Source: Bacteroides uniformis (GTDB lineage Bacteria; Spirochaetota; Spirochaetia; Sphaerochaetales; Sphaerochaetaceae). From it: a stretch of 40,537 nucleotides of DNA. The position numbers and the translations under genes are program-made. The DNA is taken from positions 9,892 to 50,428 of the forward strand of contig CAVESN010000001.1 of assembly GCA_963618365.1 (NCBI GenBank), given 5' to 3'. The stretch's first letter is position 1, and each line of letters starts with the position of its first letter. Below are positions 18,749 to 40,382 of the stretch, in pieces. A model generated the notes under the pieces. The model had not been told where the DNA came from, did not search any database, and worked only from the letters and a program-made list of their open reading frames with translations.

Positions 18749-19089
18749 GCACGTCAAAACGGCTTTTTGATGAGCACCATCAGAAAGTCGTTTCTTTTTG
18801 CCTGTCCCCCCATTAGATATTCCCGGGGCACTCATAAGACTCCAGCACTCTCCTCATCCTTCTCCGACTTACTTCTTCAGAAGAAGTTCCCCTATTCTCA
18901 AAACCATGCCAGTGAGGCGGGTGTGGTTGCCATAACTGTCAAACTATCAGCACCTTGGGATTTTCATGGCATCAAATCCCATTCGCCACGAAGCCGGAAT
19001 ATTGATTAAAAGGTTGGCTTATGCAAAAAGAAAAGAGCCATGAACTCAACGTCATGACTCTTTGATTGTCCGGGAGGATCCCTGCTACA

Positions 19090-19698
19090 TTAGAACCTAC
19101 GAATCGGCCGTACAAGATACTGACTATCGCGGCTTTGTGGCCCACTGTCCAAGCCATTAACTACTCTCTTTATTGCATATGCTGTATCGGTAACAGCTTC
19201 AGTGTTATAATCATAGACTTCAGAGCTTGTCCAGTAGTATGTATTTAATTCAAAAGAGTCTGCCAAGTCAGTGTTATACATAAGAGTTAAAAGCTCTTCT
19301 TTGCTTGGAAGGAACCAGTCTGTACATCCGTTTTCGTAGAGATCTTTATTATATACTTTATAGGCTGCCTCGTACTTTTCACCCATCTCGAAAAGTTTTT
19401 TAGTATTGTCAAGGCCACCTCCAATACTAGTTACAGTTTTGCAGTCTTCTGCTTCTTTCTCTCCCCAAGCGCAATTTACAGAAGCACCACCAAGATTACT
19501 TGCATAATCGGTTTTCGCAGCCTCAAGGTATGTCCATCCATCGGTTGAAGCTTTTGGGTTAACGTAGAAAATGGTTCCACCGGCAGGACCAGGGTCGCCA
19601 ACTTTGTAGGTGGTTGACTTGGTTTCGCTATCGTCGCACGATACAATGAGCATTGCAGAAAGCAATACCATCATCAGAACAGTAAGAGTTTTCTTCAT
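19090..19698 (-). CDS. DUF1566 (Lcl C-terminal-like) surface lipoprotein
   Basis: The ATG at 19698 opens MKKTLTVLMMVLLSAMLIVSC|DDSE, a canonical lipoprotein signal. The motifs GGTIFYV, DWFLPSKEELLTLMYN, YYWTSSE and VRPIRRF fit the DUF1566 pattern. The gene is visibly more AT-rich than its flanking genes. Confidence 0.8.
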   Translation of the reverse strand: MKKTLTVLMMVLLSAMLIVSCDDSETKSTTYKVGDPGPAGGTIFYVNPKASTDGWTYLEAAKTDYASNLGGASVNCAWGEKEAEDCKTVTSIGGGLDNTKKLFEMGEKYEAAYKVYNKDLYENGCTDWFLPSKEELLTLMYNTDLADSFELNTYYWTSSEVYDYNTEAVTDTAYAIKRVVNGLDSGPQSRDSQYLVRPIRRF

Positions 19699-19740
19699 GT
19701 AATCAATCCTTTGCAAGACAAAAGGTTCTTGCGAGGGGCA

Positions 19741-19770
19741 AGTATACCCCCCCCCGTGTATCTTGTGCAA
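19741..19770 (-). promoter_or_regulatory. Predicted sigma70-type promoter of the DUF1566 lipoprotein gene with a poly-G spacer
   Basis: The minus strand reads TTGCAC (19770-19765), then the 18-nt spacer aagatacacGGGGGGGGG, then TATACT (19746-19741). About 36 nt further on come AAGGA and the ATG at 19698. Confidence 0.5.
19747..19755 (-). repeat. Homopolymeric G9 tract (C9 on the + strand)
   Basis: Counted directly: four C at 19747-19750 plus five C at 19751-19755. Confidence 0.95.
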
Positions 19771-19827
19771 GAGGGGGACAATCACCGTCTCTTTTTCTTT
19801 TGGGGAGGAAAGGGATATGATGGCACC

Positions 19828-21162
19828 ATGCAACAAGATTTAACCATCGGTTCCATCAAGAAGAATTTGATAACATTCTCCCTTCCCTACCTTGCTTCCT
19901 GTTTTCTGCAATCGTTCTATGGCATGGCAGACCTCTTCATCACGGGAAAGTTCAACGGCGCGGAAGTCATCAGCGCTGTTGCCATCGGCAGCCAGCTGAT
20001 GCACATGCTGACTGTCATGATTGTCGGAATGGCAATGGGCACCACCGTGAACCTTGGCAAGGCGGTAGGGGGCGGGGACAAAGCCATGAAAGGGAAAGTA
20101 ATCGGGAACTCCGTGCTCTTCTTCCTTCTTCTCAGCATTCCCCTGACCGTGGCACTCACCCTCCTAACCGATCCGATTCTCCGGCTTCTTGCTACTCCCA
20201 TGGAGGCTTTCGAGCAAGCCCATGGCTACGTGCTGGTATGCATGCTGGGAATTCCATGGATAATCGCATACAATGTGGTGGCCTCCCTGTTCCGGGCTCA
20301 GGGGGACAGCAGGACCCCCCTTTTGTTCATCATGGTCGCAGGAATCGCCAATGTGTTCCTTGACTGGCTTTTCATCGGACCGTTGGGCATGGGCGCCACA
20401 GGGGCGGCCCTTGCCACCGTCATCAGCCAGGCGCTCAGCTTCCTCCTCTCCCTCCTCGCAATCCTCAAGAAGCACTTGCTACGCCTCAAGAGAGAGGATT
20501 TCAGGTTCGACCGCAAAATAGTCAAAGCAATCGTCGGAGTAGGCTTTCCCATTTGCGCACAGGATGGATGTATCCAGGTCTCCTTCCTCCTCATCACCGT
20601 GCTTGTCAACCATCGTGGCGTCATCGATGTGGCTGCGGTGGGCATTGTCGAGAAGATAATCAGCTTCCTCTTCCTCGTACCCTCCGCGATGCTCAGCTCG
20701 GTCAGCGTGGTTGCGGCCCAAAACGCGGGAGCGGGAAGGAACGACCGTTCCTTGCAATCGCTTTTCTGGGCAATCTCCTTCTGCCTGACCTTCGGATTCG
20801 TGGTCTCCCTTCTGGTCCAGTTCTTTGCAAAGGAAATTATCGGGCTCTTCACAAGCGACCCCTTGGTGGTAACCCAAGGGGCCTCCTACTTTCGCTCCTA
20901 TGTGTTCGACTGCCTCTTTGCCGCATTCCATTTCCCCATGTGCGGTTTCTTTTGCGCCTACGGGAAAGCCGGATACTCTTTTCTCAGCAACATCCTCTCC
21001 ATCATCCTCGTGCGCATCCCTGGCGCCTGGTGGGGTTCCATGGCATTTCCCGCCACCTTGTTGCCACTGGGGATGGCGGCTCCGCTAGGGAGCGTCTTCT
21101 CCTCGGTCGTGTGCGCATTGCTGCTTTTGAAGCTTTGGAGGAAAGGGAAAACCAAACCATGA
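19828..21162 (+). CDS. MATE-family efflux transporter
   Basis: The N-terminus ...IKKNLITFSLPYLASCFLQSFYGMADLFITGK... and the 12-TM pattern are typical of MATE/NorM. I chose the start at ATG 19828. The upstream part of the track ORF crosses the divergent promoter region. Confidence 0.9.
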   Translation: MQQDLTIGSIKKNLITFSLPYLASCFLQSFYGMADLFITGKFNGAEVISAVAIGSQLMHMLTVMIVGMAMGTTVNLGKAVGGGDKAMKGKVIGNSVLFFLLLSIPLTVALTLLTDPILRLLATPMEAFEQAHGYVLVCMLGIPWIIAYNVVASLFRAQGDSRTPLLFIMVAGIANVFLDWLFIGPLGMGATGAALATVISQALSFLLSLLAILKKHLLRLKREDFRFDRKIVKAIVGVGFPICAQDGCIQVSFLLITVLVNHRGVIDVAAVGIVEKIISFLFLVPSAMLSSVSVVAAQNAGAGRNDRSLQSLFWAISFCLTFGFVVSLLVQFFAKEIIGLFTSDPLVVTQGASYFRSYVFDCLFAAFHFPMCGFFCAYGKAGYSFLSNILSIILVRIPGAWWGSMAFPATLLPLGMAAPLGSVFSSVVCALLLLKLWRKGKTKP

Positions 21163-23309: not shown

Positions 23310-24398
23310 CTATCTCCGGTCAATCCAACCGGTCTTGTACAGGTACTCCGCGGCTTCGACGCCACCACCGGCAGCTCCACGGAGCGTATTATGGGAGAGT
23401 CCCACGAACTTGTAATCGAAAAGCGTATCAGGGCGAATGCGTCCTATGGAGATGCCCATCCCCTTCTCCCAATCCACATCAAGCTTCACTTGCGGCCGGT
23501 CCTCTTCATCGAAATACTGGATAAACTGTTTTGGAGCCAGGGGAAGATTGAGTTTCTGTGGCTCCCCCTCATACTCGCGCAAGGCTTTGATGAGCTGCTC
23601 CTTGGTCGGCTTCTTATGGAAATTGACGAAAACGGTGGCGGTATGGCCGTTGAGCACGGGAACGCGGATGCACTGGCTGGTGATAACCAAATCATCGGCC
23701 AATGCGATCTTCCCTCCTTCGAGCTTGCCAAGCACCTTCAGCGGCTCTTTCTCCGATTTTTCCTCTTCTCCGGAAATGAAGGGAATCACATTGCCCACCA
23801 TCTCCGGCCAGCTTTCAAAGTTCTTTCCTGCACCGCTGATGGCCTGATACGTGGAGACCACCACCTGGTAGGGTTCGAAAACGCGCCATGCGGCGAGAGC
23901 GGGAGTGTATGACTGGATGGAGCAATTCGGCTTGACTGCGATAAAACCTCTCTTGGTGCCCAACCGGCGTCTTTGCGCCTCAATCAAGCCATAATGGTCC
24001 GGATTGATTTCAGGGACCACCATCGGCACATCAACTGTCCAGCGATGGGCGCTATTGTTGGAGACTACCGGACATTCGCGGCGCGCATATGCCTCTTCAA
24101 GGTCCTTGATATCCTCTTTGGGCATGTTGACCGCGCAAAAGACAAAATCAACATCCTTGACGATTTGATCCATGTCATCCTCAAGCTCCTTGATGCGCAT
24201 GGACGCCACATATTCCGGCATGGGAACATCGAGCTTCCACTTGTTGCCTTCCAGTGCCTCGGCGTAGGTCTTTCCCGTAGTCGCCCTGCTTGCGACGACT
24301 TCAGTCAACTCGAACCAAGGATGGTTCTCCAAGAGGGTCACGAACCGCTGGCCAACCATGCCAGTGGCACCGAGAATACCGACTTTCAATTTCTCCAT
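23310..24398 (-). CDS. asd: Aspartate-semialdehyde dehydrogenase
   Basis: The NAD(P) motif GILGATGMVGQRF is present, together with an active-site region containing NCSIQ and a C-terminal GLSHNTLRGAAGG. Length is 362 aa. Confidence 0.92.
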   Translation of the reverse strand: MEKLKVGILGATGMVGQRFVTLLENHPWFELTEVVASRATTGKTYAEALEGNKWKLDVPMPEYVASMRIKELEDDMDQIVKDVDFVFCAVNMPKEDIKDLEEAYARRECPVVSNNSAHRWTVDVPMVVPEINPDHYGLIEAQRRRLGTKRGFIAVKPNCSIQSYTPALAAWRVFEPYQVVVSTYQAISGAGKNFESWPEMVGNVIPFISGEEEKSEKEPLKVLGKLEGGKIALADDLVITSQCIRVPVLNGHTATVFVNFHKKPTKEQLIKALREYEGEPQKLNLPLAPKQFIQYFDEEDRPQVKLDVDWEKGMGISIGRIRPDTLFDYKFVGLSHNTLRGAAGGGVEAAEYLYKTGWIDRR

Positions 24399-36927: not shown

Positions 36928-37650
36928 TTACTCGCCAATTTTCATTTCCCCATCCCTACACTTGATGGTCACTCCTTGTATACCCAACGCGCTACCATAG
37001 CCCGAAGCTGAATTGAAATCTTCCTTTGTTCCACCATAGTGGATTGTCTTTAGACTAGCACAACCACTGAACGCACCTCTACCAATATTTTTTATGCCCT
37101 GCGGGAGATAGACAGTCGTTTTAGCCAAACCTGCAAAACCAGACGCCTTGATTTCTGTTACAGTAGCGTTTGCGTTACCTGCTGTTTTGGCAGGTATATA
37201 AAGTGTGCTGTCGCTTGATGCAGAAGAAAGCGACACAACAAGTTGATTAGTGTAACCGTCAACATAATCATACGTTAGACTGTCTGGGACAGACACCCAA
37301 ATAGCATTAAAAGTTGTGTCCTCTGTTATTGTTTCAGTGAAATCAAACGCTTTGCTACTTTCTGCTTTTCCCCACCCGATGAATGCGTAATCATTCCGAG
37401 TCGGATCTTCCGCAAGTCTTGTAGCCGTCTCTCCCTCATTGACAGTCTGAGAATCTAATTCGGTATCCCTATCCTTGAATATAACTGTATACGATATTGG
37501 GGAACTCGGAGTCGAGGGATTCGAGGTCGACGAACTCGAGTCGTCGCAGGCAACGAAAAGTGCCGCAATCGTGAAAACAAAAGAGATTACGCAAAGACGC
37601 TTAATCTGAGAGGGATACCCCCCCCCCGTACGGTTATTTCTGTATTCCAT
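36928..37650 (-). CDS. Surface lipoprotein with a Listeria-Bacteroides repeat (Flg_new) domain and BspA-type LRR C-terminus
   Basis: The lipobox is ALFVAC|DDSSS. YTVIFKDRD...NDYAFIGWGK...FDFTETITEDTTFNAIW matches the List-Bact repeat. IKNIGRGAFSGCASLKTIHYGGTKEDF matches the BspA-like LRR_5 ending. The start is one of ATG 37650, 37665 or 37674, all upstream of the G10 tract. The gene is AT-rich relative to the window. Confidence 0.75.
   Translation of the reverse strand: MEYRNNRTGGGYPSQIKRLCVISFVFTIAALFVACDDSSSSTSNPSTPSSPISYTVIFKDRDTELDSQTVNEGETATRLAEDPTRNDYAFIGWGKAESSKAFDFTETITEDTTFNAIWVSVPDSLTYDYVDGYTNQLVVSLSSASSDSTLYIPAKTAGNANATVTEIKASGFAGLAKTTVYLPQGIKNIGRGAFSGCASLKTIHYGGTKEDFNSASGYGSALGIQGVTIKCRDGEMKIGE
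37618..37627 (-). repeat. Homopolymeric G10 tract (C10 on the + strand) inside the lipoprotein ORF
   Basis: Counted directly: three C at 37618-37620 plus seven C at 37621-37627. The tract is read as acG GGG GGG GGG (T-G-G-G). Confidence 0.95.
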
Positions 37651-37895
37651 ATACTTCTCTTTCATACATTGCATTGGCTACAGTTGCATTTTGTTGTCCA
37701 TCCGATCTCTTTACGCCCCTACAAGGACAAGCCTCGGATATCCATCTGCTCCCTGCCCTGCACAACCAATCGATTACGTTCCTATGACCGCACCATCGCC
37801 ATGCTAGAGCAGAAAGTCTACCGGGAAATCAACAAAAACCAACTCTAGGCAAACCATTGGGGCGTGTCAAGAACGCACCCAACTCCCATCTCCTT

Positions 37896-38497: not shown

Positions 38498-38591
38498 ATG
38501 CTATGATTTAAGATAAAAATTTGTCCGCTTCAGAGCGACCAACTACTTTACTTCATCAACACTTAGTTGTATGATTTCCTCAGAGGTTACA

Positions 38592-40382
38592 ATGTACGTT
38601 TCATTGACGGGGCCAAAGGGTTACGAGCAGGTAGTAATAAAGGAATCAATCAGGATTCCGGGAACGAAGGACAAGAAAAAGGAATACATCATCGAAAGGC
38701 ATGGAAGGCTGAAGGACTGCCTTGAAAAGGATCCTGACTACATAGCCCATCTGAGAGAGAAGCTCAAGAAGGAGAAGGATGAGGCGGCAAAGGACAAGAC
38801 CATCACGATTACAGTCAGGCCCAAGGAGATAAGCGGCTCATCGGACCAGAGAGCATCCTTCCATTTCGGGCATATGATAGTCAGCAGGCTCTGGGATGTG
38901 ATGAAGCTTGATGCGTTCTTCGATAAGAACGTGAATGCCAGGAATGAGGATCATGTGATTGAAGGCATATACAATCTTCTTGCAGCAAGGCTGGGAAGCC
39001 CTGCAAGCATACTGAGCATCTCGAAGGGGCAGAAGAAGAATGCCGGGATGAAGGTCATATCCCTTGATGTCCTGTATTCCGTGCTTGATGTTCTTGATGA
39101 CTCCAGGGAGGATCTGATCAGGCATCTGTCAAAGTTCTTTGCGAAGAACACGAAGAGGGATCTGAAGACAGTTAGCTATGATGTCACCAACTACTATTTC
39201 GAGAGCCAGAAATCAGGGGAGCTGAGATTATTCGGATACAGCAAGGAGAATAAGCATAATGAGGTGATTGTCGTAATGGGGCTTCTGATAGACAGCAATG
39301 GCATACCTGTGACAATGCGCATATTCCCAGGAAACACAATGGATCAGAATACACTGCAGGACTCAATAGATGATCTGAAGAATCTGTATGGCTTTGAGAG
39401 CATAACAGTGATAGCAGACAGAGGCATGAACAGCAAGGAGAATCTTGTATTCCTATCTTCCAGCAGCCAGCATTTCCTCATCAGCTACACATTGAAGAAA
39501 GCATCCGGGCAGATAAGGAACTCATGTCTTGCGGGTGACTGGCAGGAGATGGAGACGAATGATGACGGAGTGATTGTATATGCATCGAAGATTCTCGATG
39601 CGAAGGTGTCCGCAAAGATGGCGCTTACAGAAGGGGAGATTGAGAAGATGAAGGCAGAAAGGAGGGAAAAAGGAACAAAAGGCAGGATGCCGAAGTACAA
39701 GACAGTTGAGGTTGATGCAAAGCTTCATGTCTCATACAGCCGGAAAAGAGCGGAGAAGGACTATTACGATAGGCAGAGGGCTATAGAGAAAGCAAGGAAG
39801 AAGATTGAGAGCGGAAGCGCATCCCAGGCTATCAGACATGGCGTGAACAAATACCTTGAATTCAATGAGGATCTGAAAGTGACGGGCATCGATGAGGAGA
39901 AGATAAAGGAAGAGGCAAAATGGGATGGCTATTATGCTGTCATCACAGATAATGCAGACCTTACGAGCGAAAAGGTATTCGATCTATATAAGACACAATG
40001 GAAAATCGAGGAATGCTTCCGCATACTGAAGACCGATCTGAATGCACGTCCTGTATATGTCCATAATGACAAGCACATATATGGGCATTTCGTTCTCTGC
40101 TATCTTGCCTTATGCATGATACGCTATCTTCAGTACAAGCTGAAAAGCGAGCACAAGATCGAAATGAGTGCTTCAAGGATCATGGCATGCATAGCAGAGC
40201 CTATAGCGGTAGTCACAGGAGAGCCGCCCAAGGTCATCATAACGCCCACTCATCTTGATGATGACTTCATTGCGGTAATCGACAAGCTTGGATTCAGGAA
40301 GCTTGAGACGGAAATGACTCCGACAAGATTCAGGGCTGTGACCAAGCTTGACCTGAAAGACCAGTTGGAACAGCTTATTTAA
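38592..40382 (+). CDS. IS1634-like (IS4 superfamily) DDE transposase
   Basis: It contains VSYDVTNYYFES (D1 region), ITVIADRGMNSKENL (D2) and YKTQWKIEECFRILK, which fits Y(2)[R/Q](3)E(6)K. The start ATG at 38592 lies 5 nt after GAGG. The track's 38571 start is an alternative. Confidence 0.9.
   Translation: MYVSLTGPKGYEQVVIKESIRIPGTKDKKKEYIIERHGRLKDCLEKDPDYIAHLREKLKKEKDEAAKDKTITITVRPKEISGSSDQRASFHFGHMIVSRLWDVMKLDAFFDKNVNARNEDHVIEGIYNLLAARLGSPASILSISKGQKKNAGMKVISLDVLYSVLDVLDDSREDLIRHLSKFFAKNTKRDLKTVSYDVTNYYFESQKSGELRLFGYSKENKHNEVIVVMGLLIDSNGIPVTMRIFPGNTMDQNTLQDSIDDLKNLYGFESITVIADRGMNSKENLVFLSSSSQHFLISYTLKKASGQIRNSCLAGDWQEMETNDDGVIVYASKILDAKVSAKMALTEGEIEKMKAERREKGTKGRMPKYKTVEVDAKLHVSYSRKRAEKDYYDRQRAIEKARKKIESGSASQAIRHGVNKYLEFNEDLKVTGIDEEKIKEEAKWDGYYAVITDNADLTSEKVFDLYKTQWKIEECFRILKTDLNARPVYVHNDKHIYGHFVLCYLALCMIRYLQYKLKSEHKIEMSASRIMACIAEPIAVVTGEPPKVIITPTHLDDDFIAVIDKLGFRKLETEMTPTRFRAVTKLDLKDQLEQLI

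Follow-up and report, generated by a model that had tools for sequence, protein, structure and literature searches.

Work on repeat-driven phase variation has dealt almost exclusively with pathogens (Neisseria, Haemophilus, Campylobacter, Helicobacter and Treponema pallidum), and surface lectins and adhesins are among its typical targets. The vlp lipoprotein genes of Mycoplasma hyorhinis have in common a block of promoter, 5' untranslated region and signal peptide, with a poly-A tract between the -35 and -10 hexamers of each gene, and are turned on and off in combination. Here we describe a 40,537-nt stretch of DNA from contig CAVESN010000001.1 (assembly GCA_963618365.1), referred to below as the window, in which a run of nine G residues (G9) stands in what reads as the promoter spacer of a lipoprotein gene. 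Judged from sequence and from comparison with related loci, this tract probably acts as a transcriptional spacer switch of that gene, of the phase or rheostat kind.

The closest described systems are those in which a G homopolymer lies upstream of a surface-protein gene. In porA of Neisseria meningitidis, a G tract is located in the -35/-10 spacer, and changes in its length grade expression of the surface protein from high to none (PMC7864442). The T. pallidum gene tp0126, which encodes an OmpW homologue, has a poly-G tract between its -35 and -10 hexamers, with transcription optimal at a 17-nt spacer; 76% of 17 further poly-G tracts of at least 8 nt analysed in that species were clearly variable in length (PMC7864442). 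At tprE/G/J and tprL of T. pallidum, tracts of up to 8 G are permissive and longer tracts reduce transcription. The poly-G there adjoins or overlaps the -10 or the start region and leaves the -35/-10 spacing unaltered, and a porA-like mechanism was ruled out by the authors (PMC7864442).

Promoter layout around the G9 tract

Reading the minus strand of the window directly, from 19770 downwards, yields the following elements. The sequence from the promoter to the start codon, as read, is ctcTTGCACaagatacacGGGGGGGGGTATACTtgcccctcgcaagaaccttttgtcttgcAAAGGAttgattacATGaagaaa.

19765 to 19770, minus strand: -35 hexamer TTGCAC, with TGCACA at 19764 to 19769 as the alternative (from the sequence and a promoter scan; aligned with TTGACA in all homologous cassettes)
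19756 to 19764, minus strand: the half of the spacer without a repeat, aagatacac, 9 nt (its sequence is unconserved between cassettes, its length 7 to 9 nt in all of them)
19747 to 19755, minus strand: G9 homopolymer (C9 on the plus strand), the proposed hypermutable element, abutting the -10 (from the sequence; also G9 in the assembly L001, and G8, G9 or G10 in homologous cassettes)
19741 to 19746, minus strand: -10 hexamer TATACT (from the sequence and the scan; TATACT, TATAAT, TACACT or TAAAAT at the same position in cassettes)
19713 to 19732, minus strand: palindrome or putative 5'-leader hairpin, GCAAGA-N8-TCTTGC, just downstream of the presumed transcription start
19707 to 19711, minus strand: Shine-Dalgarno sequence AAGGA, 8 nt before the ATG (from the sequence; AAAGGA is invariant in all cassettes)

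The direct reading confirms the arrangement that had been predicted originally, namely TTGCAC, aagatacac followed by nine G, and TATACT, with a spacer of 18 nt of which 9 nt are G. The promoter scan, on the other hand, takes TGCACA as the -35, which leaves 17 nt before TATACT, and scores 9 of 12 matching positions. The spacer at G9 is accordingly 18 or 17 nt, depending on which of the two -35 registers is taken. Between the end of TATACT and the ATG of the lipoprotein gene (19698) lies a leader of 42 nt that contains AAGGA. The predicted order of -10, AAGGA and ATG is thus correct, whereas the predicted distance of "about 36 nt" is not, since, counted from the end of the -10, AAGGA starts at 30 nt and the ATG at 43 nt.

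At the level of sequence, the tract is placed inside the -35/-10 spacer of the promoter driving the lipoprotein gene; that these hexamers are the ones in actual use we infer. Transcription would start at about 19734, just downstream of the -10. In the sequence at hand, this promoter is the only recognisable one for the lipoprotein gene, which is predicted to be monocistronic. A terminator-like scan match at 19742 to 19728, across the -10, was considered as a possible terminator or attenuator and set aside as a chance match: it is largely upstream of the presumed transcript start and is absent from other cassettes.

A promoter cassette shared with related loci

We compared the DNA of eight homologues of the lipoprotein (loci are labelled L and proteins P in what follows). 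The closest homologue, P0002 at locus L082, is 72% identical at the protein level, and its gene is preceded by TTGACA, atatcaata, G9, TATAAT and 41 nt up to the ATG. That is, L082 has perfect consensus hexamers and the same spacer of 9 + 9 nt, in an intergenic region that is AT-rich and otherwise unrelated to that of the window. An in-frame TAA falls between the G tract and the ATG of L082, and the tract is therefore non-coding.

Across the homologues, the same elements recur in a constant order: TTGACA, 7 to 9 nt, the G tract, 0 to 3 nt, TATACT/TATAAT/TACACT, 8 nt, GYAAGAC...GTCTTGC, AAAGGA, 7 to 8 nt, and ATG AAG AAA AC. The -35 and -10 hexamers are kept in 11 cassette copies, and the distance from -10 to ATG is 40 to 42 nt. 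Conserved hexamers at conserved positions, around a spacer whose sequence is not conserved, form the footprint expected of a real promoter. In related metagenome contigs, the same cassette precedes genes of two unrelated lipoprotein families, an Lcl_C lipoprotein gene (P0018/P0028) and a DUF6273 lipoprotein gene. The cassette loci found in relatives were as follows.

L083, positions 1228 to 1236, and L084, positions 1227 to 1236
L111 and L195 to L197
L096 to L099 and L105 (at about 760 to 770)
L192 to L194

The leader palindrome GCAAGA-N8-TCTTGC is present in every cassette copy and conserved, mostly at the level of sequence, in 7 cassette types, including those of L082, L083, L088, L096 and L192. 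As a structured leader hairpin, it was not accepted as a well-supported candidate, since we found one compensatory pair only and a fold energy (z = -0.77) that is not unusual; a search of the leader against Rfam returned no known RNA element. The palindrome could be a stabilising stem at the 5' end of the mRNA, or a protein operator that would add a second layer of control.

Some copies that stand second in an operon (L083 at about 1950 to 2000, and L096 at about 1440 to 1500) have a short hairpin, GCCCTTTGG...CGAAGGGC, directly before TATACT. It takes the place of TTGACA and the G-tract part, as though an intercistronic stem-loop had replaced the tract region there. In L083/L084 and L088, transposases of the IS66 and IS110 families flank the cassette-bearing lipoprotein genes.

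Tract length in the relatives

Tract lengths could be compared between samples for several of these cassettes, in each case as the consensus of a short-read assembly and not as a count of reads.

P0018/P0028 locus: G8, spacer 17 nt, in ERZ27313896
P0018/P0028 locus: G10, spacer 19 nt, in ERZ27313956, ERZ27313954 and ERZ27313969
DUF6273 locus: G9 versus G10, in L083 versus L084
Copy with G6: spacer 14 nt, identical in 5 samples
Copy with G4: invariant in 3 loci
Copy without a tract: TTGACA, 18 nt, TAAAAT, identical in 8 loci

Where the length differs, little else does. The alignment of loci L195 and L196 (1,754 nt) contains 0 mismatches, and the tract, with a 2-nt change, is its single gap. Between L083 and L084 there are 8 mismatches and one gap over 3,805 nt, and the aligned stretch of 201 nt around the tract is otherwise identical. 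Variation was seen only in tracts of at least 8 G. Slipped-strand mispairing would be expected to show just this dependence on length, which counts against generic assembly noise. The copies with G6 (14-nt spacer) and G4 (spacer of about 11 nt) are presumably locked off, or co-transcribed with an upstream gene.

In the comparison of tract lengths that had been suggested with the original prediction, G8, G9 and G10 are thus all found in homologous cassettes. Two assemblies, probably not independent of each other, cover the window's own locus, and only G9 is seen there; that the tract varies at this locus too would be expected by homology with these cassettes. Exact-protein look-ups of the lipoprotein and of the protein encoded at a second tract (see below) retrieved no other contig, and that of the protein of the divergent MATE efflux gene retrieved a single Logan contig (L001, the second of the two assemblies just mentioned), which has G9. 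A scan of JGI metagenomes for the exact pattern of leader, Shine-Dalgarno sequence and ATG gave no match. The family scan of JGI data gave relatives of at most 42% identity only, whose few G/C runs of at least 8 are outside promoter-like positions upstream of lipoprotein genes.

Long G runs are over-represented

The window has a G+C content of 52.1%. Its G/C runs number 50 at length 5 and 8 at length 6, with none at lengths 7 and 8, followed by one of length 9 and one of length 10. The two runs of at least 9 compare with an expectation of about 0.02 per window (extrapolated from the decay of run lengths with both long tracts masked), which amounts to an excess of about 100-fold, with a Poisson P(>=2) of about 2e-4. 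Markov models trained with the tracts left in gave P(>=2) values of 0.018 to 0.095; the tracts themselves push these values up, and low-order models also predict too many long runs. Every run of at least 8 G, in the window and in the loci of close relatives, sits at the 5' end of a lipoprotein gene with the G on the coding strand. In the sister-species loci (about 64 kb), no G/C run of at least 7 was found. The absence of such runs from the rest of this genome region and from the sister species argues for selection and not neutrality. A tract of nine G is also long enough to slip, as homopolymers of about 8 nt or more can. A poly-G artefact of two-colour sequencing chemistry was ruled out, as the tract is internal to contigs and has the same flanks in independent assemblies.

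Proposed mechanism and competing readings

In the mechanism that we propose, slipped-strand mispairing at replication would add or remove one G in the tract. The distance between -35 and -10 would thereby shift, with G8, G9 and G10 corresponding to 17, 18 and 19 nt (for TTGCAC) or to 16, 17 and 18 nt (for TGCACA). Such shifts would alter both the rotational and the linear fit of the hexamers to RNA polymerase and give promoter strengths that are graded, heritable and reversible. Within a clonal population, transcription of the lipoprotein gene might thus be high in some cells, intermediate in others and very low in yet others. An effect of tract length on expression would follow from this layout.

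Several points weigh against this reading. The hexamer pair alone is at chance level (2 promoter-like sites per 1.5 kb, versus 1.6 +/- 1.2 in shuffled sequences), and the -35 is weak, with TTGCAC matching the consensus at 3 of 6 positions and TGCACA at 4 of 6. The use of a sigma-70-like promoter in this host is an assumption, because the taxonomic placement rests on the labels of metagenome-assembled genomes (MAGs) and on synteny with a Spirochaetales MAG. Both assemblies of this locus, namely the window itself and L001 (a Logan contig, from SRR13434632), have a tract of G9 and are probably from the same sample, and the tract is unchanged at G9 in L082 and in L192/L193 as well. Homopolymer lengths are error-prone in short-read assemblies. 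Lastly, the G6 copy with its 14-nt spacer is stably maintained, so functional spacing is not needed by every copy.

The constancy of G9 at these loci and the error-proneness of short reads would fit a tract that is an inherited and effectively fixed spacer, in a promoter that is constitutive or conventionally regulated, with the length differences being strain differences or assembly noise. However, L195 and L196 are identical except in the tract, the G4, G6 and tractless copies never differ across 3 to 8 samples, and the lack of long G runs elsewhere in this genome region and in the sister species points to a tract that is selected and not neutral. We consider a fixed spacer quite unlikely in view of these data.

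The weakness of the -35 and the persistence of the G6 copy also bear on a different reading, in which the tract is regulatory and hypermutable but does not act through spacing. It would act as at tprE/G/J/L of T. pallidum, by way of DNA structure, a CRP-like regulator or a protein bound to the palindrome. That the window's tract directly abuts TATACT, and that a conserved palindrome follows the -10, would be in keeping with this. Yet the relatives carry perfect TTGACA and TATAAT/TATACT hexamers around the tract at exactly 17, 18 or 19 nt, as the spacing model predicts, and no regulator site was identified for the non-spacing model. We therefore hold such a mechanism to be unlikely.

Nevertheless, the spacer switch remains the reading that we prefer. 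The original idea of a slippage-prone G tract that makes up half of the spacer, and is thereby a candidate switch, gains support from the layout of L082, from the cassettes with G8 to G10, and from the invariance of the copies with short tracts. We regard the feature as real and its core reading as well supported by the comparative data: it would be a spacer homopolymer of the porA/tp0126 type, with a mechanism that is in itself textbook.

The lipoprotein gene

The gene that the promoter would control, and the hairpin that follows it, are given below.

19090 to 19698, minus strand: lipoprotein coding sequence, 202 amino acids, with signal peptide and lipobox Cys21 at 19636 to 19698 and a C-terminal DUF1566/Lcl_C domain (from the open reading frame (ORF), Pfam and a family profile)
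19022 to 19063, minus strand: terminator-like hairpin with a 12-bp stem (19063 to 19032) and a T-rich tail (from a terminator scan)

Because the terminator-like hairpin follows the gene, the latter appears to be a self-contained monocistronic unit. The ORF from the ATG at 19698 begins MKKTLTVLMMVLLSAMLIVSC, which is a signal peptide with a lipobox (LIVSC), and the canonical lipoprotein signal peptide predicted at this ATG is thereby borne out. The family as a whole consists of lipoproteins of about 190 to 260 amino acids with a common MKKTL-VLMMVLL signal peptide.

The DUF1566 label of the original prediction is less straightforward. When the single sequence is searched, Pfam Lcl_C/DUF1566 (PF07603) scores 25.9 bits (E = 1.3e-5), which is below the cut-off of 34.9. 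In favour of the label, a profile of the 24-member family matches PDB entry 8Q4E with E = 4e-10 across its 88 C-terminal positions. PF07603 is also given in the precomputed annotations of most homologues and of P0001, a protein identical to that of the window. The protein is probably a divergent member of DUF1566/Lcl_C. The structure 8Q4E shows the C-terminal domain of Lcl, the collagen-like adhesin of Legionella; this domain has a C-type-lectin-like fold and recognises sulphated glycosaminoglycans, and the product of the window's gene may likewise be surface-exposed and lectin-like. We found no link in the literature between DUF1566 and phase variation.

An in-frame ORF (19090 to 19836, minus strand) opens with a TTG at 19836, crosses the G tract and continues in the frame of the lipoprotein. 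Gene callers could take it for a protein of 248 amino acids, in which the signal peptide would be masked; the same pitfall of mis-annotation has been reported for tp0126 and tprL of T. pallidum (PMC7864442). Were translation to begin at an upstream start in this ORF, the tract would be coding and slippage would act as a translational switch by frameshift, as is suggested below for a second tract, whose protein has an N-terminus that the translated GGGY...PSQ of this frame resembles. However, the upstream part contains no in-frame ATG, the extension does not have the character of a signal peptide, and the TTG start would fall inside the divergent MATE gene. Downstream lies a canonical lipoprotein start (AAGGA, 8 nt, ATG, MKK), and in L082 a stop codon closes the frame upstream. 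A coding role of the G9 tract is, on this evidence, extremely improbable.

A second G tract in the window

The other long run of the window lies in a second lipoprotein gene.

37618 to 37627, minus strand: G10 in the 5' coding region of a gene (36928 to 37650/37674) for a lipoprotein with Flg_new and BspA-type leucine-rich repeats (from the run count, the ORF and homologues)

There is no in-frame start between the G10 tract and the signal peptide of this gene. Two homologues, P0133 and P0134 (47 to 49% identity), begin with MKH(K/R)NSTGGGY and so keep the GGG codons. We computed the effect of tract length on the product: G10 gives 240 amino acids, and G8, G9, G11 or G12 gives 15 to 21 amino acids. 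The G10 tract looks like a translational on/off switch of phase variation that is currently on, and hence like a companion contingency locus. With the two tracts read in this way, the genome shows poly-G put to two uses on predicted surface lipoproteins. As for a common origin of the two tract regions, only the context ACG(n)TAT was found in common and the alignment was otherwise unconvincing, so homology between them was rejected.

Upstream of this gene, a promoter-like arrangement of TTGACA, 17 nt and TAGAGT is found at 37870 to 37842. About 900 nt upstream of the gene there is also an intact transposase gene of the IS1634 family (38571 to 40382, plus strand; 603 amino acids; NCBIfam E = 1e-101).

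Considered together with the copies in the relatives, these loci raise the possibility of a portable contingency cassette, which would comprise -35, G tract, -10, palindromic leader, Shine-Dalgarno sequence and MKKTL start. It would have been copied, within this clade of uncultured gut or rumen spirochaetes, before unrelated lipoprotein genes (Lcl_C, DUF6273) and inserted at new loci, in the window in place of an acetyltransferase gene beside MATE. With the intragenic G tracts of the BspA-LRR lipoproteins, it would provide a combinatorial surface repertoire of many loci, like that of Mycoplasma vlp. We put this forward tentatively, as a scenario that has somewhat less than even chances.

Neighbouring genes and the host

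The lipoprotein gene is divergent from an efflux gene of the MATE family.

19828 to 21162, plus strand: divergent MATE efflux gene (MatE, E = 3e-49), first ATG at 19828 (neighbour; from the ORF and Pfam)

The nearest genome for the MATE protein is an uncultured Spirochaetales MAG, RUG13351, at 65% amino-acid identity, which has neither the lipoprotein nor the tract. A sister species, whose Asd is 87% identical, keeps the order Asd, PseudoU synthase, flavin reductase, PHP and MATE. The slot divergent from MATE holds an acetyltransferase gene in the sister species, a 164-amino-acid ORF in L002 and the lipoprotein gene in the window; the gene of RUG13351 in this slot is likewise a 164-amino-acid one of acetyltransferase type. 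Nucleotide homology to the sister species breaks at 18749 to 19875 (window versus L198/L200). The break in homology, together with the different gene in the slot, indicates that this lineage alone has acquired the lipoprotein unit with its switch, or has put it in place of another gene. A search for direct or inverted repeats at the borders of the unit, as a sign of insertion, gave only two short, unconvincing inverted pairs. The window also differs from L198/L200 and L002 in how the adjacent ABC-transporter genes are ordered (solute-binding protein versus permeases).

The tract stands 72 nt upstream of the MATE ATG, in a shared intergenic region of 129 nt, and it had been suggested that it might affect both genes. 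It could in principle tune mainly the MATE gene, or the two together. However, no plus-strand promoter-like site includes the tract, the MATE orthologues of L002 and the sister species lack the tract and have another gene upstream, and the tract travels with the lipoprotein cassette and not with MATE. An influence on MATE thus finds no support here, and we consider it very improbable.

The available evidence points to a gut or rumen spirochaete as the host, a placement that rests on MAG labels. In one of the homologue loci, the TP_0008 Pfam family is represented by a neighbouring gene. The homology search with Asd was not taxonomically discriminating, its named matches being Oribacterium, Lachnospiraceae, Pseudoscardovia and Spirochaetales, but the locus of the sister species was reached through it. 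The Asd encoded in the window (23310 to 24398) is of the archaeal type (asd_EA). Beyond the immediate clade, the closest named relatives are Firmicutes and Bifidobacteriaceae, at 70 to 73% identity for Asd and about 50% for MATE. The affinities of Asd and MATE hint at gene exchange with other gut bacteria and make single-gene taxonomy unreliable here.

Significance

The locus is a comparatively supported example of a spacer homopolymer in an uncultured and apparently commensal lineage of gut or rumen spirochaetes, in which the cassette is reused across lipoprotein families. This suggests that stochastic surface variation also belongs to the biology of commensal spirochaetes. The mechanism being textbook, it opens no new question. 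The cassette does provide a signature with which metagenomes can be searched: TTGACA, N7-9, G8 or more, TATAMT, about 41 nt, and ATGAAGAAA. We would also like to caution annotators that ORFs extended through such tracts are artefacts.

Comparison with known systems

The original prediction had likened the window's tract to the poly-G tracts of the T. pallidum tpr genes, which were said to act in the same way. This is imprecise, since the length of the tpr tracts does not affect the spacing (PMC7864442). Like the tract in the window, those of tprE/G/J and tprL lie upstream of surface-protein genes, and they are variable there, but their mechanism differs from the spacing effect proposed here. 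PorA of N. meningitidis is closer in layout, with a G homopolymer in the spacer. It differs in belonging to another phylum, in encoding a porin and not a lipoprotein, and in that the window's tract abuts the -10 directly.

Judged by its layout, tp0126 is the true T. pallidum analogue of the window's promoter. In both, a poly-G tract of about 8 to 10 nt lies in the sigma-70-type spacer of a gene for a surface or outer-membrane protein in a spirochaete. At tp0126, an over-long upstream ORF at first masked the true start and the signal peptide (PMC7864442), and the window has a spurious in-frame extension too. Unlike tp0126, which encodes an OmpW-type barrel in a pathogen, the window's gene encodes an Lcl_C/DUF1566 lipoprotein in an uncultured, commensal-type gut or rumen lineage. 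Its putative promoter is moreover part of a duplicated cassette common to several lipoprotein genes.

In this last respect the cassette resembles the vlp system, in which a common block of promoter, leader and signal peptide likewise precedes several lipoprotein genes. The vlp genes differ in having poly-A and not poly-G tracts, in belonging to a Mollicute and in their repetitive coding regions, and combinatorial switching is a feature of vlp.

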